The notes under the pieces are model-generated. The model did no database searches. It saw nothing but the letters and a program-made list of their open reading frames with translations, and was not told where the DNA came from. A DNA stretch of 64,000 nt from Promethearchaeota archaeon (GTDB lineage Archaea; Asgardarchaeota; Heimdallarchaeia; Hodarchaeales; Hodarchaeaceae), in NCBI GenBank assembly GCA_048938105.1, contig JBHLMN010000002.1, positions 224,001-288,000 on the forward strand, given 5' to 3'. Below are positions 1 to 24,924 of the stretch, piece after piece. How positions within the stretch are numbered: position 1 is the stretch's first letter; each line of letters begins with the position of its first letter. The translations under genes and the position numbers were made by a program.

Positions 1-2328
1 CTTACTTTCATCAAGCAGCTGAAAAGCACCTTCAATCTCTGGAATTTTATGAATATTCTCAAGAGTAAATTCTAGCCATTTTTCAGGGGGTAAGGTTACA
101 GATGAGAGATGTAACCGTAAGTCACATCTAAGACATCGCTTTGCTTCTTCCATAGCCATTTTTTCATTCAAGCCTAGTTCTATTTCTTTAAAACTGGTTA
201 TACGGTCTGTGAGGGGTACACGTGGCATTTGAACTCTGGATCTATCAGAGAAATCCTCTTCCCGACCAAGCCAAGGATTTGGAGTATCTGGCTCAATTAG
301 TGCTTCATCGATATTACCATTACCACCCAAGTATCTATCTATGGAAATAGCCGCTTTTCGTCCCATTTCAATTGCTTCAACAACTGATAAGGGGCCCTTT
401 ATTACTTCTCCTCCCGCAAAAATTCCTTTTACATTAGTAGAAAGGTCACTATCATTCGCACTGATTAGACCTGATGGAGAAATTTGAACTGACGTTTCTG
501 CTTCTAAAAGAGATAAGTCAGGATTCTGGCCTATGGCCATTATTACCATGTCAGTTTCAATATTCTTCCGGGTTGCTTCATCAAATCTTGGATTAAACCT
601 GCCATTCTCATCAAAAACATCTGTGCATCGAACTAATTCTATTTTTTCAACTTGATCTTTCGCGCCAACGATTTTCTTGGGACCCCATGAGCAGTGAAGA
701 GTAATATTCTCATCAATTACCTCTTGGATCTCCCATTCATGAGCAGGCATTTCTTCTCGTGATTCAAGACATGCTATCTGGACTTCCTTAGCACCTATTC
801 TAAGTGCAGTCAATGCAACATCCATTGCGACTCCACCACCTCCAATTACAAGAACTCTATTTTCTATTTGCACTTTTTTTCCTTGGGTTACATCGTTTAA
901 GAATTCTAATCCCCAAAGAACTCCCCTAAGTTCCACTCCTTCAATTTTAAGTTTTTTAGCTTGTTGTGCCCCAATAGATATAAAAATTGCTTCATAATGT
1001 TGTTGTAAATCCTCAATAGTTAATTCTTTTCCTATTATGATGTTGGTCTTGAATTCAACTCCTGCATCTCTTATATATTTAAGGTCATTTTCAAATATTT
1101 CTCGTGGTAATCGATATTCTGGAATTCCCTGTCTTAACATGCCTCCTATCTCTGAGTTCTCTTCGAAAATAACAGTTGAATGGCCATTTCTGGCCAAGTA
1201 ATAAGCTGTTGTAAGCCCTGTGGGGCCAGAACCGATGATAGCTACTTTTTTTCCAGTAGTAGGAGAAGTAGTGACTTTCGACTCCCATACTTTTGTGTCT
1301 CGTTCAATAGCAAAACGTTTGAGCGCACATATGGCAATTGGATCATTAAGCTGACCTCGGCGGCATTCTGTTTCGCAAATATGAAAACATACCCTTCCAA
1401 GGACGGAGGGAAGAGGAGTTTTCTCACGAATGACTGCAGCAGCTTCACCAAATTTACCTTCCGCAATCAATCGAATATACCGTGGAACATCCGTCCCTAA
1501 AGGACAAGTATTACGACAAGGAACGAGCGAATTTTCACGTTCAGCCCAGAGAATCTCTTTGTCAGAGAGAGCTCCTGTGGGGCAAACTTCAACACATGCC
1601 CCACAAAATTTACATCCTGATTCCTTAAGTGTCGCTTTGACGCTTCCTACTATTGTTTCACCATTTGAAAAGATAAATCCAAGAGCATTCACCCCTCGGA
1701 CATCCTGACAAACTCTTACACATCGTGTACATCCTATACACAGTTCGTAATTTCGTATAAATAGAGGTTCATCATCAAGTATTTGAATTCCTTGAGGTTT
1801 ATAGCGTGGAGTGTCGTCTCTTATCCCAACATATTCTGCTACTTTTTGTAATTCACACCTTCCTAACTCTGGACAACATCGTTCTTCTACAGGAACATTT
1901 GTGGAACATGGTTCACGACTACAACCCTCTTGTTGAGCGCAAGTTAAACAAGCATGCGGATGTTTTGCGAGAATTTTCATCATTCGTTCTTGTCTGAAAT
2001 CGTGAATCTCTGGCAAATCAGTCCAAATTATCATATTTTCTTGTATTATTGTATTACATGCTGTTACAAATTCTTCAGTACCTTCTATTTTAACAACACA
2101 AAGTTGACAACCTTCGTGTGTTTGTAAAGTTGATGAAATATCGTTCTTATATTCTACATCGCCTCGATATATAGATTCAACCGGTTTTAAATTTTGTGAT
2201 GATGTTAAATTTGGATGTGAGCAGAGTCTTGGAATATAAATATCAGATACTTCAGCAGCCTCTAATACTGTTATTCCTTTCTTTACATTAATCTTAGTAC
2301 CATTGATGCTTATAGATATCGTTTCCAT
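1..2328 (-). CDS. bzdV: BzdV-like NAD(P)H:ferredoxin oxidoreductase (N-terminal 2Fe-2S/4Fe-4S domains plus GltD-like FAD/NAD(P) domain); 3' end runs off the window
   Basis: Absent from the ORF track. Translated by hand from ATG 2328 (METISISINGTKINV...IPRLCSHP...GCQLCVV...CIGCTRCVRVC...CKFCGACVEVCPTGAL...IIGSGPTG...VIGGGGVAMDVA), open to position 1. Lies directly downstream of bzdM. Confidence 0.8.
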   Translation of the reverse strand, partial: METISISINGTKINVKKGITVLEAAEVSDIYIPRLCSHPNLTSSQNLKPVESIYRGDVEYKNDISSTLQTHEGCQLCVVKIEGTEEFVTACNTIIQENMIIWTDLPEIHDFRQERMMKILAKHPHACLTCAQQEGCSREPCSTNVPVEERCCPELGRCELQKVAEYVGIRDDTPRYKPQGIQILDDEPLFIRNYELCIGCTRCVRVCQDVRGVNALGFIFSNGETIVGSVKATLKESGCKFCGACVEVCPTGALSDKEILWAERENSLVPCRNTCPLGTDVPRYIRLIAEGKFGEAAAVIREKTPLPSVLGRVCFHICETECRRGQLNDPIAICALKRFAIERDTKVWESKVTTSPTTGKKVAIIGSGPTGLTTAYYLARNGHSTVIFEENSEIGGMLRQGIPEYRLPREIFENDLKYIRDAGVEFKTNIIIGKELTIEDLQQHYEAIFISIGAQQAKKLKIEGVELRGVLWGLEFLNDVTQGKKVQIENRVLVIGGGGVAMDVALTALRIGAKEVQIACLESREEMPAHEWEIQEVIDENITLHCSWGPKKIVGAKDQVEKIELVRCTDVFDENGRFNPRFDEATRKNIETDMVIMAIGQNPDLSLLEAETSVQISPSGLISANDSDLSTNVKGIFAGGEVIKGPLSVVEAIEMGRKAAISIDRYLGGNGNIDEALIEPDTPNPWLGREEDFSDRSRVQMPRVPLTDRITSFKEIELGLNEKMAMEEAKRCLRCDLRLHLSSVTLPPEKWLEFTLENIHKIPEIEGAFQLLDESK

Positions 2329-16988: not shown

Positions 16989-17654
16989 TCAAATGCTATA
17001 TCGGATTTGAGTGTCACGGATGTAGATCGAAAGTTCGGCTGACAGTTTAGTTAAAAGCGTATGAGCTTGAGCAGATAACCCTAATCCAGTTATTATATTA
17101 AGAGAAAGACTATTTAATAGATCAACCACGAAGAAATCATTTAAAATAGTTTCTAACCAGTGTAAGAAGAAAAGCTGGAAAGGAGGTCTATTAGAAGTAA
17201 ACCATACGGCATTTCTGAGATCCATTTTATATAATTGTCGCATCATAAGTAATCGAAGCTGACGGTTTTTTCCAAAATGAGTGTGATAATCTTGGGCATG
17301 TTCCAGATGTCTTTGTTTAAGATCTGTAAGTTTAATATTCAATTCCCCTGTTATTCCCCTTATTACCTCAGATATCTTGAAACGAATTAAATAAGCTTGT
17401 TCGATAGAATCAAGTAGGCTTCGGAAAAGTCTTTTTAAGTCATGAATTGCTTCACTGGTTGAATTTGCATCATTTCGAAAAATACATCCCCCAAATAATA
17501 TAAGTGGTTCGCGATCAGGAAATTGATTTTGGTAATATAAATAAGTTCTTGGTTTTTCAATGATGCCCATCTTACTCAATTTTCTCTTCTTGGTTAAACT
17601 TTTGAAGCTATCTAAATAATTCATTAGCAAGTTGGTAGATATTTTCTGAGACAT
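16989..17654 (-). CDS. Hypothetical protein
   Basis: 221-aa ORF, divergent from the large surface-protein gene; no motif recognised. Confidence 0.6.
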   Translation of the reverse strand: MSQKISTNLLMNYLDSFKSLTKKRKLSKMGIIEKPRTYLYYQNQFPDREPLILFGGCIFRNDANSTSEAIHDLKRLFRSLLDSIEQAYLIRFKISEVIRGITGELNIKLTDLKQRHLEHAQDYHTHFGKNRQLRLLMMRQLYKMDLRNAVWFTSNRPPFQLFFLHWLETILNDFFVVDLLNSLSLNIITGLGLSAQAHTLLTKLSAELSIYIRDTQIRYSI

Positions 17655-17939: not shown

Positions 17940-20900
17940 GTGGGTCATCTCAAAAAGATCGTTATGTGTCTTCTAATTCTTATTCCTATGACAAACTTAA
18001 CATTCCTCTTCTCCCCACTTTGTATAAAGACATTAGAATCTTTAAATGTCTATTCAGGTACCAATTATAATAACTCTATTTTGAATGACAATAAACAAGA
18101 AATGTTTCAATTTGTACCTGAATTGAGAAATAAATCGCTAATTTCGTCAGCTGAAAAGAGACCTAGCTATAATTTAGATAGTAACTTCAATCTAACCATA
18201 TTAAAACCTATTAATAATGGCACAAAATCAGAAATTCCATCTGAAAATCCTCTGGGAGTTATTCATTGGCAATTAGTCTCTGATGATAATGATAGTTCTT
18301 TTATTATTGAGAATTATTCTACAGCTACTTCTTATACAGATACATACCAATCCCAAAATATCACTGGTATCTCTGGTATTATCAACTCTGTATCATTAAA
18401 TATACGCGTTCGAACTAGTATGTCTTTTGCTAATGCTCGAGCTTGGACAGTATTACACACATATGATAAAGAATTCATTGGATCTTTGAATGAACCATCT
18501 ACTAGTTGGAATAATTATTCAACGAATTATCTGACTAATCCCAATACTTTATCAAAATGGACATGGGATGAAGTCAATACAATGGAGGTAGGAGTAAGGT
18601 TACGAGCGTTACCACAGCAAGATAGAGAATGTTGGTGTTCTGAAGTCTGGATTGAAGTTAATTATACCCAAATAAATGATGTAGATCCTCCATTAATTAT
18701 AGATCACGGAGTAGATGATTTGGGGAATGGTACAGGCATTTTTTGGGCTGATATTAGAGACGATTTATCTAGTGTGGATACAGCATATATCTCAATTAAT
18801 GGTACCGAACATTCAATGATAAATAACGGATCGTGTTGGTTATTTCAAACCTCAGTTTTGTTTAAGAAATATTATCAATTTCAAATTACGAATTCTTCAG
18901 ATTCCAATGGGAATTATATTGACTCTCCTTCAAACCCTAAGTATTATTCATTTGACAAGGACATCGTTACTCCTGTCATAGATACTCCAGTCTATTGTCC
19001 AACACTTGGGGATAATGGGACCTTCAAAGTAAATGTAAGCGACCCTTGGGGGGAATTAGATACTGTAATTATCAATGTTACTATTGCTGCAGGTGTACCA
19101 CAACAAAATTTATGGTGTGTAATGGAAAATACAGACTTTGGATATATGACTAATGCTTTGATAATTAACAAAGGTATTTTTCATTATTTTATAATTGCTA
19201 ATGACACAAAAGAGAATATAGGTATTTCTAATGAAATAATTTCAAATGTACCAAATCATTTCCCTGAAATTACAGATCTACAACTTTCAAGCGATAAAGA
19301 TCATTATAAGGATCTTATTCATAGTAATGATACTCTTTATGTTCAATATAATTTTTATGATCGTGACGGTGACAATGAAGGAGGGACTGAAATACACTGG
19401 TATAAAAACGGCGTTCTACAGCCCCTTCACAATGATTCTCGCCAAATTCCAGCCTCTTATTTGGTTAAAAATGATCAGTGGTTTGTTACAGTTAAACCAA
19501 GGGATGGATATAATTATGGGATTGAGCTAACTTCTAACACCACATTAATTCTTAATGTTCCTCCAAGGGTGTACAATTATTCATATGTTTTTAATTCAAA
19601 TTGCAGTAATATTTTTCCAGATTTAAGATCTACTTTATCAGGACAAGTTTTCTTTATCGAAGATGAGATTATTTCACTTCTATATGAGTTTGAGGATAGT
19701 GATCAACCTATAGATTCTGATCAATCAAGGATTCAATGGTTCTGCAGATTAGAAACTAGTGAATGGGAGGAAGTCTTAGATTATCAAAATAAAACATCTA
19801 TACCCCCCTCTGAAATATTAGTAGGGGAGTACTGGAAGTGTAAAATCACTCCTTATGATGGTATCGATCTTGGAAAAAGTGTCGATCTGAATGAAATTTT
19901 GATCGAAAGTCGTCCAGATATTTTGAGTCACAATGTACAACCTATAATAATTGATGACAAGGGTAATTTCCTTGATGAAGGAAATTTTAGATTTCAGGTA
20001 GTAACATCCAGTCTAAACCCAATTATTAGTGTAGAATTCTTAATTAATGATTCTTCAGGAGTTATTTATTATGCTCAAAGAAGTCCAAATAATGATTCAA
20101 TGTGGATTTTAGATTACAACTTACCCCTAAACGAATTTTGTGATAATTATCTAGCAAAAACTCTCATAACCAAAGTAAGAGTGTGTAGTTTTCTAGATTA
20201 TCAAGACCAAGAGTATATGATATATGCTGATTATACCTTTTCTTTTCAAGTTGAAGACAGATGCCCCCCTCGTGTTGTTGGGAATCCAAGTATTATCTTT
20301 AATGATAACATTAATCCTACCAATATAACATTTCTTTCAAATATAGTCGATTATGGATCTAAAATTGAATCTGTATGTCTTTACTACTATTTTAGAGAAA
20401 TTAATGAAAATGAAATAACATTAGCCGGTAGTGGTGCTTGTTTTCAACAAAATGACATTGTAGAATGGCAGGCTGTAAATATGTCACTCCTCTCAGTCAA
20501 TATGACCAATAATATTCATACATATTCTGTAACTGTCCCATTTGAGCATAATAATACATCTAAAGCAATAATTTTCTGTATTAAAACCACTGATAGCAGT
20601 GGTAACACTGGAATTCCTTTTAATATACTTAATGATACAGATAGGATCATAGAATTTCATTTTGAAAAAGAAACCATGCAATTTGATCCAATATTAATCG
20701 CAATAATTATTGGTTTCTCAATTATCTTAACAATTATTGGATCAATAATATACTTCAGAATCTTCAGGAAACCTGAATTGATTGGTTTGGATAAAGAATT
20801 AGTACTTAATCAAATCTCTGAAGTTAGTGAATCAGAAACACTGGAATTCCTTGATATTCATACAATCGGGATAGTAATAGCTTTTTTTGATCAGCAACGT

Positions 20901-21341
20901 GGCCCAATTCCAATAATTATAATCCCTGAGATATTAAAGGATAATTTTTCCAAATTGATCGAATTAGCTGACAGATCTTTTGGCGCTATAGGTGACATTC
21001 AAGACTTTGAGGGAGAAATAGCTTCAAATTTTGACTTTCTATTATCAAAAGACCTTCTTCTCAAGTCAATATGTTTTGGTTTTACTTTACAACGACCTCA
21101 AGCGAGGGGAGGCAAAGAGAATCTAACATTGAATGTTCTGATATATCAAGATGTATTTCCATTAATTGTTCAATTTCTTGACGAAATCCATGAGAAAGTA
21201 GAAGTTGTTCATAAGTTAATGGATAATGAAAATTCAGAGAAAAATTTGATTACAAGGAAGATTATTGCAGTCAGGAAGTTTATCTCAAAAATAATCTTAG
21301 CGTATGAGAACATTTATGGCACTAAGGATCTTCTGAAGTAA
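17940..21341 (+). CDS. Large single-pass membrane protein: signal peptide, Ig-like/beta-sandwich ectodomain, TM helix, cytoplasmic longin/uDENN-like domain
   Basis: Hydrophobic N-terminus; many NxS/T sequons; two Y.F.D.D.D......W...IP......W...P.DG repeats; TM ILIAIIIGFSIILTIIGSIIYF-RIFRK; C-terminal IVIAFFDQQRGPIP and FTLQRPQARGGKENLTL. Confidence 0.75.
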   Translation: MGHLKKIVMCLLILIPMTNLTFLFSPLCIKTLESLNVYSGTNYNNSILNDNKQEMFQFVPELRNKSLISSAEKRPSYNLDSNFNLTILKPINNGTKSEIPSENPLGVIHWQLVSDDNDSSFIIENYSTATSYTDTYQSQNITGISGIINSVSLNIRVRTSMSFANARAWTVLHTYDKEFIGSLNEPSTSWNNYSTNYLTNPNTLSKWTWDEVNTMEVGVRLRALPQQDRECWCSEVWIEVNYTQINDVDPPLIIDHGVDDLGNGTGIFWADIRDDLSSVDTAYISINGTEHSMINNGSCWLFQTSVLFKKYYQFQITNSSDSNGNYIDSPSNPKYYSFDKDIVTPVIDTPVYCPTLGDNGTFKVNVSDPWGELDTVIINVTIAAGVPQQNLWCVMENTDFGYMTNALIINKGIFHYFIIANDTKENIGISNEIISNVPNHFPEITDLQLSSDKDHYKDLIHSNDTLYVQYNFYDRDGDNEGGTEIHWYKNGVLQPLHNDSRQIPASYLVKNDQWFVTVKPRDGYNYGIELTSNTTLILNVPPRVYNYSYVFNSNCSNIFPDLRSTLSGQVFFIEDEIISLLYEFEDSDQPIDSDQSRIQWFCRLETSEWEEVLDYQNKTSIPPSEILVGEYWKCKITPYDGIDLGKSVDLNEILIESRPDILSHNVQPIIIDDKGNFLDEGNFRFQVVTSSLNPIISVEFLINDSSGVIYYAQRSPNNDSMWILDYNLPLNEFCDNYLAKTLITKVRVCSFLDYQDQEYMIYADYTFSFQVEDRCPPRVVGNPSIIFNDNINPTNITFLSNIVDYGSKIESVCLYYYFREINENEITLAGSGACFQQNDIVEWQAVNMSLLSVNMTNNIHTYSVTVPFEHNNTSKAIIFCIKTTDSSGNTGIPFNILNDTDRIIEFHFEKETMQFDPILIAIIIGFSIILTIIGSIIYFRIFRKPELIGLDKELVLNQISEVSESETLEFLDIHTIGIVIAFFDQQRGPIPIIIIPEILKDNFSKLIELADRSFGAIGDIQDFEGEIASNFDFLLSKDLLLKSICFGFTLQRPQARGGKENLTLNVLIYQDVFPLIVQFLDEIHEKVEVVHKLMDNENSEKNLITRKIIAVRKFISKIILAYENIYGTKDLLK

Positions 21342-21603: not shown

Positions 21604-23664
21604 TTGACTAGGTATGCAGAAGTTCAACTTGACATTGAAAGTTTAAAGTTCGGAGTCAGTGGGATAGTTTCCAAATTCTTTGAAAAGAGTTCTAGTAGAG
21701 AATCAACAGCGCTAATAGGCTCATTTATCAGTAATTATTATTCTGCTCTAGAAAAATATGAGGAAGAAGACACTAATGATTTTTTAAAGCTCCGACGGTT
21801 AATCACTGAATTTAAACCTGCTTTATCATCTGTGTTACAGCCCGGAGAAGAATTTGATGGCCTTTGTGAGTCGGTAATCCCTCTTTTCAATGTAATGTTG
21901 GATAGTGCTAAACAACAAATCATGGGAGAGTCTTCCCAATCCAAAACAAAGGGACCAATGATACCAGGGAGTGATCAATCAACCGATATTCGATATTATT
22001 GCACAGTATGTAAGCAAAAGTTTGATATTTCCCAAAAAGTGAAAATACAACTGCTAAACTCGGTTGAAAATGTGGAAATCCCCAAACATCACGGAAAGGA
22101 AATGAAGATCATGATTGTTCGGCTTGAGGATACTACCCCTCTTCAGGACGACAATATTTCAGTTGACACTAAGTTGGATGAATCCAAGTTTTCTGCTGCA
22201 GTTCTAATGGGTCATTTTCCCTCCCTTGAATCTAATGTTGAGTATCTGAAACTATTAAGTGTCGGAATCGATGTAGGGTCTTCCACTTCTCATCTTGTCT
22301 TTTCTAAGATTACATTAAAACGAGAACAAAGTTTTTTTAATCCCTCAAATCGTTTTTTTCCAATTAATCGTGAATTAATTTATGAAGGACGGATTATTTT
22401 TACTCCTCTCTCTAGTTCCAACACTATAGATATTGAATCGGTTGTAAACTTTATTCATGAGGAATATAAGAAAGCTAATATTAAACCCAATATGGTGGAT
22501 ACTGGTGCTGTGATTGTCACTGGAGAGGCAGCTAGAAAACAGAATGCTGCAGAGATCGTGAATCTAATATCTTCTGAAACGGGAAAATTCGTAAGTGCAA
22601 CTGCAGGGCCGAATTTTGAAGCTCTTCTTGGAGCTATAGGAAGTGGTATTGTTAAATACTCTCAAATAATTCTGCATACGATAATGAATGTAGATGTCGG
22701 GGGAGGTTCATGTAAGCTCTCAATTATATCAAACGGGTATATTCATAGTACTGCAGGCATAAGAGTAGGTGGTCGATTGCTGGGAATAGATAAGAAATTC
22801 AAGATCTGGAGGATAGATGAACCCAGTTATTTTCTAATGGAGGAGCTAAAAATGAATTACCAGCTGGGGGACATCATATCAGAAAAAGATGTGAGAATTA
22901 TTGCTAAAAAATATGCAGAAATATTACTTGAAGTAATGAGAGGGCCAGCGAAAAGTAACATCGCAAAGAAATTGATGTTAACCGATAATCTTGATTTTAC
23001 CATACCTATCGATGAATACTCATTTTCAGGTGGAGTTGCAGAGATGATTTATGGAAGTTTAAAGGAATATAATGACATTGGTAACTATCTTGCTCAAGAA
23101 ATACAGAATCTCATGAATAGTCTGAATTTGCCTATAGTAGAGCCTGATAATAAAATTAGAGCAACTGTTATTGGTGCTGGAGCATTTACTCTATCAATAT
23201 CTGGTTCAACCTGTTTTGTAGATGAAAATATCAAACTTCCAGTCTTTAATGTGCCAGTTATCCCTGTTAATGTCACATATGAGAATTTTAGCACACAAAA
23301 AGTTGAGGAAGAAGTAAGCCGATCTTTCAAGAATTTCGATTTTGAGGAAGGTGAAGATTTGGTTGCCTTGTATTTTACACGACCAATCTTATCCTCAAGT
23401 GAAAGGTTGCTAATATTTGCCAAAGCTCTAGAAACTGCACTTCCAAACTCTGCTGCAAATAAAAAGATGATAATCCTACTCTTCGGAATGGACATTGCTA
23501 GAATCCTTGCAACCATCATCCGTCGCGAAACTTCGATCAAGACAAATCTCATTTGTCTCGATGAGTTAGTCTTGAAGGTAGGTGACTGGATAGATATCGG
23601 AGCTCCCCTCCATAATGGTGAAGCTTATCCTGTTACTATCAAAAGTTTAATTTTTAAGAGATAA
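21604..23664 (+). CDS. eutA: EutA-family (ethanolamine ammonia-lyase reactivase-like) ASKHA ATPase with about 210-aa N-terminal extension
   Basis: LSVGIDVGSSTSHLVFS, DTGAVIVTGEAARKQNA, FVSATAGPNFE, FSGGVAE, IRATVIGAG, GDWIDIGAPL...PVTIKSLIF. Confidence 0.8.
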   Translation: MTRYAEVQLDIESLKFGVSGIVSKFFEKSSSRESTALIGSFISNYYSALEKYEEEDTNDFLKLRRLITEFKPALSSVLQPGEEFDGLCESVIPLFNVMLDSAKQQIMGESSQSKTKGPMIPGSDQSTDIRYYCTVCKQKFDISQKVKIQLLNSVENVEIPKHHGKEMKIMIVRLEDTTPLQDDNISVDTKLDESKFSAAVLMGHFPSLESNVEYLKLLSVGIDVGSSTSHLVFSKITLKREQSFFNPSNRFFPINRELIYEGRIIFTPLSSSNTIDIESVVNFIHEEYKKANIKPNMVDTGAVIVTGEAARKQNAAEIVNLISSETGKFVSATAGPNFEALLGAIGSGIVKYSQIILHTIMNVDVGGGSCKLSIISNGYIHSTAGIRVGGRLLGIDKKFKIWRIDEPSYFLMEELKMNYQLGDIISEKDVRIIAKKYAEILLEVMRGPAKSNIAKKLMLTDNLDFTIPIDEYSFSGGVAEMIYGSLKEYNDIGNYLAQEIQNLMNSLNLPIVEPDNKIRATVIGAGAFTLSISGSTCFVDENIKLPVFNVPVIPVNVTYENFSTQKVEEEVSRSFKNFDFEEGEDLVALYFTRPILSSSERLLIFAKALETALPNSAANKKMIILLFGMDIARILATIIRRETSIKTNLICLDELVLKVGDWIDIGAPLHNGEAYPVTIKSLIFKR

Positions 23665-23847: not shown

Positions 23848-24213
23848 TTGTTAAAATATAGAGGGTTCATAATGATTAATATCGATCGTTGGGAAGCTGG
23901 CTATCGTAAGGGATTTGCGAAGCCAACTATACTTCAAATACTTCTTGATGAAGGAGAAAGCTATCCTTACAAGTTGACAAAGCAGATTCCTAAGCGAACA
24001 CAGGGGATGTTAACAATGGCTTCTTCTAACATTTATCCTATACTTAAAGACCTGAAAGATGAAGGATTGATTCAGGTAACAGGAGAGAAAGAACGCAAAG
24101 TCATGTACGGACTTACAAAAGAAGGCCAGACCTTTCTAACGGAATTACAAGAATCAATAACTGAGTTTCTTACCATTATGCTAGCAAATTTTAGTAAAGG
24201 AAAAAGAGGATGA
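23848..24213 (+). CDS. PadR-family transcriptional regulator (start probably at Met 23872)
   Basis: ILQIL...SYPYKL, NIYPILKDLKDEGLI, RKVMYGLTKEG. Confidence 0.85.
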   Translation: MLKYRGFIMINIDRWEAGYRKGFAKPTILQILLDEGESYPYKLTKQIPKRTQGMLTMASSNIYPILKDLKDEGLIQVTGEKERKVMYGLTKEGQTFLTELQESITEFLTIMLANFSKGKRG

Positions 24214-24219
24214 AAGGAA

Positions 24220-24924
24220 ATGAATGACAAATTACCTTCAATAGATTCTTATATACAAAAAATTGATTATTGGCTTCTTTATCCTAAAACAAAAAAGAAA
24301 ATAGTCTTGGATAGATTAAAGGCGGAAATTATAGAGGCCATTCAAGACACAGAGAAAAAAGATCCTGTAGAAGCATTTGGTAACCCCTATCAAGTTGCAA
24401 AAGATGTTAGTTTGGGTCAGGATTGGGATATAGAGCGATCAAGTTATTCTGATAGAATAGTGGCATTTATGATTGATACATTCATACAGATAATCGGAAT
24501 TTTGATGGGTGTCTTTATTTGGATGAGAGCTGTGCTATCTCCTAATTATTTTGCTACTGGACATATAGTAACATTTGCTTTGGTCACATTATTTTTCTTT
24601 CTAATTCCGTATGTACTAATCTTGGATGTAGGCTATTTTATTATCTTTGAGAAAATTACAAGTAAAACACCAGGTAAAGCCTTGTTAGGATTAACTGTTT
24701 GTGATGTATCCGGGGTTCGAATAACCTGGTCACAAGCAATTATACGTAATTTAACTAAGGTTGAGTCTACCATACTGTTATTTGAAGTTATAATCGGAAT
24801 TGCTCAAAAAACTGACTTTCAAAGACCATTGGATGTCTTGGCCAACACTATCGTAATTAGAAAGAGATTCAGAAATCCAGCTGGGGAACATAATGCAAAT
24901 CAACATTCCAATGATCAAATTTAA
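24220..24924 (+). CDS. RDD-family membrane protein with N-terminal HAAS-like domain
   Basis: IDSYIQKI...VEAFGNPYQVA; RIVAFMID; TPGKALLGL; QRPLDVLANTIV; follows PadR. Confidence 0.8.
   Translation: MNDKLPSIDSYIQKIDYWLLYPKTKKKIVLDRLKAEIIEAIQDTEKKDPVEAFGNPYQVAKDVSLGQDWDIERSSYSDRIVAFMIDTFIQIIGILMGVFIWMRAVLSPNYFATGHIVTFALVTLFFFLIPYVLILDVGYFIIFEKITSKTPGKALLGLTVCDVSGVRITWSQAIIRNLTKVESTILLFEVIIGIAQKTDFQRPLDVLANTIVIRKRFRNPAGEHNANQHSNDQI

Follow-up and report, generated by a model that had tools for sequence, protein, structure and literature searches.

A predicted folliculin/SMCR8-type longin domain as the cytoplasmic tail of an Asgard archaeal surface protein family with Rag-like GTPase gene neighbors

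Introduction

Could a cell-surface protein of an Asgard archaeon act on a small GTPase through its own cytoplasmic tail? This question is raised by a gene at positions 17940–21341 (plus strand) of a stretch of 64,000 nucleotides from a Promethearchaeota archaeon, here called the window (contig C6, 224001–288000, of the source genome G000, which comprises 5.85 Mb in 65 contigs). The open reading frame (ORF) has a GTG start and a stop codon at 21339–21341 and, as read from the ORF list and its translation, encodes 1133 residues. A previous reading of the sequence, hereafter the original prediction, had described a receptor-like protein carrying a longin domain of the folliculin (FLCN)/SMCR8 type and a putative arginine finger inside the cell, with which an outside cue would be coupled to GTPase-activating protein (GAP)-like control of a small GTPase. 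In eukaryotes the longin domain of FLCN (together with FNIP1/2; in yeast, Lst7–Lst4) is a GAP for RagC/D–Gtr2 (PF11704; PDB 8dhb, 6nzd, 6ulg and 4zy8), and the known longin GAPs act as heterodimers with a second, different longin, most of them also bearing DENN domains. Here, the tail of the 1133-residue protein is predicted to adopt a longin fold closest to this group, its candidate arginine is kept throughout a family of similarly built surface proteins, and genes of paralogs are syntenic with genes for Rag-like GTPases.

A longin domain is predicted for the cytoplasmic tail

A hydropathy scan of the 1133-residue protein detected two hydrophobic segments, aa 6–29 and aa 917–940. The first (17955–18026; Kyte-Doolittle scan), which is also found in paralogs, is a likely signal peptide or signal anchor. 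The second (20688–20759), with hydrophobicity up to 2.85 over 19 residues and followed by Arg and Lys residues, coincides with the transmembrane (TM) helix originally placed at about 20690–20756. Since the Arg/Lys-containing segment FRIFRKPE directly follows this helix, the positive-inside rule assigns the last 193 residues (aa 941–1133; 20760–21338) to the cytoplasm, where they would form two juxtamembrane helices and an FLCN/SMCR8-type longin domain. The strings quoted for this region in the original prediction, IVIAFFDQQRGPIP and FGFTLQRPQARGGKENLTLNVL, are both present in the protein. The gene appears to encode a glycosylated single-pass cell-surface protein with a longin tail inside, and orthologs of the same length (68–79% identity) are found in related Asgard genomes. 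The sources of the closest homologs are named Hodarchaeales, Heimdallarchaeota and Promethearchaeota, and the source organism belongs with the Heimdall/Hodarchaeales group of Asgard archaea.

AlphaFold2 (AF2) modeling of the tail with a 49-sequence alignment gave a predicted local distance difference test score (pLDDT) of 92.7 and a predicted template modeling score of 0.88. After the two juxtamembrane helices, secondary structure assignment by DSSP (tail numbering) yields strands 35–44 and 48–55, helix 57–77, strands 86–96, 99–111 and 119–129, and helices 133–155 and 161–186, which is the strand and helix order of longin domains. The longin core (β1-β2-α1-β3-β4-β5-α2-α3) accordingly spans aa 975–1126 (20862–21317). 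In structural comparison, the highest score (14.0, at 13% identity) was obtained with the longin domain of a Lokiarchaeota Roadblock-Longin protein (8yqg), followed by FLCN (8dhb_J, 13.2, with a root mean square deviation (rmsd) of 2.6 over 135 residues; 6nzd_H, 12.1), the C9orf72–SMCR8 complex (7o2w_A, 11.9), Lst4 (4zy8, 11.8) and a GATOR1 chain (9o5a_H, 11.0). DENND1 (about 9), the TRAPP and SNARE longins (7–8) and Roadblock, GAF and LuxR ligand-binding domains (about 6–6.6) scored lower. The longins of FLCN, SMCR8/C9orf72, NPRL2 and FNIP/Lst4 rank above SNARE, TRAPP and adaptin longins and above roadblock for this tail, and the proposed assignment to a longin fold of the FLCN/SMCR8 type is borne out by the AF2 model and the structural comparison. 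A roadblock/LC7 identity (as in MglB or LAMTOR) was rejected, as both the fold order (α-β-β-α-β-β-β for roadblock) and the best structural matches disagree with it. The tail ends seven residues past the last long helix of the longin and has no DENN domain; the 1133-residue protein does not have the full-length architecture of folliculin, SMCR8 or FNIP (soluble, longin then DENN).

The tail carries the GP motif and a candidate arginine finger

Two short motifs of the longin core are conserved and lie in the interface predicted below. The first is F-D-Q-x-x-G-P (F983–P989; 20886–20906) at the β1–β2 turn, in which G988-P989 (codons 20901–20906) follow strand 35–44 of the model, i.e., β1. This “GP motif” of GAP longins is present in FLCN, NPRL2, SMCR8 and C9orf72 and absent from the longins of FNIP2, NPRL3, DENND, TRAPP and adaptin, and a class of Heimdallarchaeial longins with both GP motif and arginine finger has been described (PMC12290439). 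The second, A-R-G-G-x-E-N (A1055–N1061; 21102–21122), contains the candidate arginine finger R1056 (codon 21105–21107) in the model loop 112–118, between strands 99–111 and 119–129. A preprint on the SMCR8 structure places the catalytic arginine (SMCR8 R147, equivalent to FLCN R164) in the βL4–βL5 loop. R1056 occupies the same β4–β5 loop as FLCN R164, and their equivalence, which the original prediction had proposed, stands as a match of loop position and not as an atom-level superposition. A longin fold, an arginine kept among homologs and its correspondence to FLCN R164 were the three points on which that prediction had been staked; the first two are seen here, and the third at the level of loop position.

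The link to folliculin is also detectable, at low strength, by profile methods. The Pfam Folliculin profile PF11704 (curated cut-off 23.3 bits) is weakly matched by 21 of 49 diverse tails (best E 1.8e-4), over profile positions 48–115, which comprise β4, the Arg loop, β5 and α2; the tail of an 8857-residue paralog, at 23.5 bits, reaches the cut-off. A soluble 437-residue protein of the source genome scores higher (28.6 bits for the protein, 29.8 bits in a six-frame genome search). When the tail profile was compared with this protein using hhalign (E 1.9e-5, probability 77.5%), FFDQxxGP was paired with VFDEEHGP and PEARGG with PEARGK. The 437-residue protein (L009, 622–1932, minus strand, equivalent to C52, 295247–296557) has an N-terminal FLCN-type longin and is probably of the longin-plus-DENN type known from Heimdallarchaeia. 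Genes for a weak Roadblock/LC7 protein (164 residues) and a zinc-ribbon protein lie immediately upstream of its gene, and an Arf-like 315-residue gene lies about 5 kb away (C52, 290098–290613).

The longin tail defines a family of surface proteins

A search with the tail retrieved 29 proteins of the same architecture, with tails 54–87% identical to that of the 1133-residue protein; the ectodomains of the more distant ones are about 27–34% identical. An exhaustive HMMER search against 1.84 billion representatives found 152 proteins at E ≤ 1e-3, up to 5809 residues in length, and in most of them the longin domain is at or near the C terminus. Among 175 family members, the domain is C terminal in all 138 that are fully covered, and a TM-like segment lies within 70 residues upstream in 125 of 134. 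Conservation of the arginine across homologs, on which the arginine finger proposal depended, is nearly complete: R1056 is kept in 153 of 157 members, as are G988 (151/151), P989 (144/151) and E1060 (154/158), and R1056 and E1060 are invariant in the alignment of 49 diverse tails.

The source genome encodes four paralogs, in which the longin tail ends ORFs of 2596, 3579, 1541 and 8857 residues. In each of them a hydrophobic segment lies at the N terminus, sequons are numerous and a TM segment immediately precedes the tail. The 1541- and 8857-residue ORFs, each longin-tailed, are tandem genes on the same strand with a 4-nt overlap (C52, 37454–68649), and a similar receptor tandem (8821 and 1542 residues) is found in genome G058. 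When 399 genomes of the phylum were searched with the profile, strong matches (E < 1e-40) came from 19 of 20 genomes of the same genus, with two to eight or more copies each. Matches of this strength also came from two other families of the class, from a single genome in a second family of the order and from a single genome in a family farther removed within the phylum. Elsewhere in the phylum the matches were weak; the one listed lies in an ORF of about 470 residues.

Paralog genes are syntenic with Rag-like GTPase genes

As originally stated, the window holds no GTPase gene, in that no Ras, Arf or Rag hidden Markov model matched within it; the Ras-type gene closest to the 1133-residue gene on this contig lies about 57 kb off, and the source genome has 77 Ras-superfamily matches. 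Rag-like genes are found beside the closest paralog, p2 (C28, 49987–57777), the tail of which is 55% identical to that of the 1133-residue protein. Directly upstream of p2, on the same strand, is a gene for a 729-residue protein that begins with a Gtr1/RagA domain (111.6 bits); divergent from this gene is one for a 300-residue Rag-like GTPase (130.3 bits). Synteny was counted by comparing the positions of tail matches and PF04670 matches (E ≤ 1e-12) in 11 genomes, which represent three families of the class. Of 78 Rag-like genes, 26 lie no more than 5 kb from a receptor ORF, as compared to 1.6 expected under random placement, the genomes being related and not independent; conversely, 16 of 51 receptor ORFs have a Rag-like neighbor. 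All three families show the linkage, and both the paralog lineage and the gene orientation differ from case to case. Through these paralogs, the originally proposed link to a small GTPase gains support.

The form of the linkage varies with the lineage. In the genus of the source genome, a Rag of about 300 residues directly follows or precedes the receptor, or a Rag of about 740 residues is convergent with it. In the two other families, the cassette order is a P-loop protein (about 240 residues), one or two receptors, a long Rag (490–651 residues, same strand, about 150 nt downstream of the receptors) and a convergent Rag of about 407 residues. The P-loop protein (GDGHTGKT) is encoded directly upstream of the receptor (L053, 2595–3314; L054, 81–812; L055, 2836–3567; plus strand), so that the cassette there holds three GTPase-like genes. 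No convincing TM helix was found in the Rag-like proteins examined, and an ESM Atlas feature search with the C-terminal 530 residues of the long Rag yielded no usable result.

A soluble protein of about 340 residues, conserved and bearing an N-terminal TIFEDxGP motif as well as a D-x-RIAQFGR motif, flanks the short Rag in four paralog loci of the same genus, convergent with it (L017, 17378–18400, minus strand; L056; L059; L060). This protein has no Pfam family and is absent from the window, and hhalign of the tail profile against it and against the 729-residue Rag was not significant. It is a candidate second longin subunit with an FNIP/C9orf72-like role. A paralog of it (C52, 101733–102248) lies inside a cluster (L018; C52, 88000–106000) of four Rag-like genes (300, 334, 332 and 309 residues), about 28 kb from the 8857-residue receptor gene, together with genes for an MFS transporter and a CBS-domain protein.

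A complex of the tail with a Rag G domain is predicted

Two copies of the tail (tail residues 30–193, with their own alignment) were modeled with the G domain of the 300-residue Rag from the p2 locus (13-row alignment), GTP and Mg. The three runs gave ipSAE values of 0.74, 0.74 and 0.75, as compared to 0.01 for the best of three controls, with at least 87% contact agreement and a partner pLDDT of at least 86. The pass mark is one that 58 of 80 solved complexes attain, as do 2 of 110 mismatched pairs, figures that are approximate for a job with its own alignments and ligands. The multimer prediction with a host small GTPase that had been proposed as a check therefore passed its controls. In tail copy 1, the interface comprises residues 43–49 (FDQQRGP), 71, 74–75, 78–81, 116–119 and 121 (the Arg loop); in copy 2, residues 43–48 and residues of α1; and on the GTPase, P-loop residues 15–16, switch I residues 36–48 and switch II residues 64–67, including Gln64. 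The highly conserved residues F983, D984, Q985, G988, P989, D1011, F1014, G1018 and R1056 are inside this interface. The predicted complex supports binding of the tail to Rag.

Proposed mechanism and alternative explanations

The reading that we favor, and consider reasonably probable, is that R1056 serves as an arginine finger on a Rag-like GTPase to which the tail binds on the cytoplasmic side of the membrane. Docked on the GTPase, probably as a longin dimer, the tail would insert R1056 beside the P-loop and the switch II Gln and stimulate GTP hydrolysis in a manner reminiscent of FLCN–FNIP on RagC/D. The site at which the Rag switch is turned off would be set by the surface protein, which might also regulate it through clustering or adhesion. 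For the 1133-residue protein the target would be a Rag from another locus, with the pair beside p2 on C28 as the leading candidates. A longin fold, a conserved arginine and a link to a small GTPase are the elements of the originally proposed receptor with GAP-like GTPase control that find support here; the suggested linkage of the adjacent gene at 16989–17654 does not. Outside-in signaling is a more tentative extension, in which engagement or clustering of the giant glycosylated ectodomain, upon contact with another cell or a surface, would shift the dimer state of the tail and set the nucleotide state of a cassette-encoded Rag heterodimer; transmission of an outside cue by the ectodomain is speculative. 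If true, this would represent a plasma-membrane forerunner of the FLCN–Rag branch of nutrient signaling, predating lysosomes and TOR.

Several observations weigh against catalysis on a Rag. The 1133-residue protein has no Pfam match at E ≤ 1 and the tail alone none at E ≤ 10, and sequence searches of the PDB with the tail, its 49-member profile and the soluble FLCN-like protein returned coiled-coil noise, with no FLCN, SMCR8 or NPRL2. R1056 is equated with FLCN R164 on loop position. Orthologous loci of the 1133-residue gene have no Rag neighbor, as in the window, so that the proposed partner is taken from a paralog locus. Complexes of a similar kind (FLCN–RagC, GATOR1–RagA and SMCR8–ARF1) have been solved, and the passing prediction may therefore reflect recall in part; its score covers the contacts between tail and GTPase, the modeled tail homodimer lying outside it. 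The tail, presumably a homodimer and without DENN, also departs from the heterodimeric longin GAPs of eukaryotes. Finally, longin and roadblock dimers or platforms are mostly GEFs (guanine nucleotide exchange factors) or scaffolds, not GAPs (PMC10933270). This last point also favors a role of the tail as a noncatalytic Rag-binding platform, anchor, scaffold or GEF of the Ragulator/LAMTOR kind, with the Arg and GP motifs serving binding. The synteny with Rag and the predicted interface fit binding as well as catalysis, eukaryotic Rags depend on a membrane anchor, those Rag-like proteins that were examined have no convincing TM helix, and the top structural neighbor of the tail is the Loki roadblock-longin protein. 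Such a platform is the less likely explanation, though a substantial one, when set against the conserved arginine placed beside the nucleotide in the predicted complex.

Alternatively, the tail may act on a GTPase other than Rag (Arf-like or Rab/Ras-like, as for SMCR8–C9orf72) or pair with a soluble longin/DENN protein, the link to Rag being confined to the paralogs. The ortholog group of the 1133-residue protein, with no Rag neighbor, would fit this, as would the many Ras-superfamily genes of the genome and the use of the same arginine by SMCR8 on ARF and Rab GTPases. In three genomes, Ras/Arf/Roc-type genes (175–203 residues) lie 4–7 kb from the orthologs (loci L013, L015 and L016). These neighbors were rejected as partners, as their positions and orientations differ between loci, none is in the window and such genes are frequent; with 77 per genome, roughly one locus in four should have one within 8 kb, so their presence is probably due to chance. 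Given further that the tail is so similar to that of a Rag-linked paralog and that the interface residues are conserved, we consider a non-Rag target improbable. Least probable is that the tail is a small-molecule sensor of the PAS/GAF kind, or a module that serves an adhesin in folding, sorting or anchoring and takes no part in GTPase control. A PAS/LOV reading of the Foldseek matches was discarded on rmsd and Z, and no PAS/GAF fold is the best match of the tail.

Comparison with known systems

FLCN is a soluble protein, unlike the 1133-residue protein, the longin of which is the C-terminal tail of a predicted glycosylated single-pass surface protein. FLCN also has extra segments that the tail lacks (135 aligned residues are spread over the chain range 2..268), and the 1133-residue protein has neither an identified FNIP/Lst4-type partner nor a Pfam match. 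SMCR8–C9orf72 (CSW complex) and NPRL2–NPRL3 (GATOR1/SEACIT) are soluble, DENN-containing or multisubunit, and located at lysosomes, as compared to an assumed homodimer on a plasma-membrane protein. The Lokiarchaeota protein 8yqg is likewise soluble, and fused to a roadblock domain. The tail would resemble Ragulator (LAMTOR1–5) as a platform of the roadblock/longin class holding a small GTPase at a membrane, and MglB–MglA in that a dimer acts as GAP on a single GTPase (MglB2:MglA).

Soluble FLCN-like proteins (longin plus DENN) have been described before in Heimdallarchaeia. These “Folliculin/SMCR8 longin domain-containing” proteins are from the same phylum and share the GP motif and the arginine with the tail (PMC12290439; bioRxiv 10.1101/2020.10.19.343400), but are discussed without a membrane anchor, in contrast to a tail family fused to giant ectodomains and syntenic with Rag. 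Whether Arf or Rag is the partner of the Heimdallarchaeial FLCN/SMCR8-type longins was left open by the authors (PMC12290439), and the GTPase in the operon reported by Liu et al. (bioRxiv 10.1101/2020.10.19.343400) belongs to a family other than the Rags. In the Lokiarchaeia strain MK-D1, Tran et al. found that, as a rule, GTPase genes do not share operons with longin/roadblock genes, so that pairs could not be predicted (PMC10933270). Neither the receptor form nor the Rag cassette turned up in our literature search, which also returned no paper for 8yqg or the LokiRag entries, and no mention of a membrane-anchored form was found in the papers cited here on Asgard longins. The present analysis finds an FLCN/SMCR8-type longin as the cytoplasmic tail of giant surface glycoproteins, with a Rag cassette in three families of one Asgard class. 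These receptor–Rag cassettes nominate concrete regulator–GTPase pairs, and suggest that the FLCN–Rag module first worked at the cell surface and not on an organelle. Judging from sequence and models, a eukaryote-style switch seems to be wired to the archaeal cell surface.

Ectodomain

The ectodomain (aa 30–916) contains 31 N-x-S/T sequons. Shuffling its residues 2000 times gave 13.9 ± 3.2 and never as many as 31; the description of the ectodomain as sequon-rich therefore holds against chance. The cytoplasmic tail has two sequons. AF2 modeling with 27 homologs resolved the membrane-proximal part (aa 439–914; 19254–20681) into tandem all-β modules (pLDDT 80–94) of immunoglobulin (Ig)/fibronectin type III (FnIII)-like β-sandwich form, while the sequon-rich N-terminal half (aa 30–438; 18027–19253), which is weakly conserved beyond close orthologs, remained below a pLDDT of 50. 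The original “Ig-like” label thus applies to the membrane-proximal half. Foldseek with aa 439–914 returned tandem Ig/FnIII arrays (gp130/OSMR, RTX-adhesin repeats, contactin and fibronectin), which point to a generic string of β-sandwiches and not one specific family, and an ESM Atlas feature search with the ectodomain gave scores below 0.8. Invariant Trp, Asp and Pro columns of the 27-sequence alignment fall in the membrane-proximal aa 514–889, the distal part being variable. This layout would fit a conserved stalk and a variable, possibly ligand- or surface-binding, head.

Neighboring genes

The divergent gene at 16989–17654 had been suggested as linked to the receptor gene, a suggestion that the comparison of loci does not sustain. 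Its 221-residue product has no Pfam family and no paralog in the source genome; the gene is retained, at 87%, only next to the closest orthologs and is missing from the loci of more distant ones, and it shows no similarity to the conserved cassette genes of the paralog loci. On these grounds the linkage was rejected. Downstream of the receptor gene, 21604–23664 (plus strand) encodes a 686-residue protein that starts with a 215-residue extension without known family and continues, in residues 216–685, as a complete EutA domain (E 1.6e-125); paralogs are encoded on C53 (62% identical) and C41 (39% identical). This is followed at 23848–24924 (plus strand) by a pair of genes for proteins of 121 and 234 residues, a pairing that recurs on C27, C47 and C39 at 33–44% identity.

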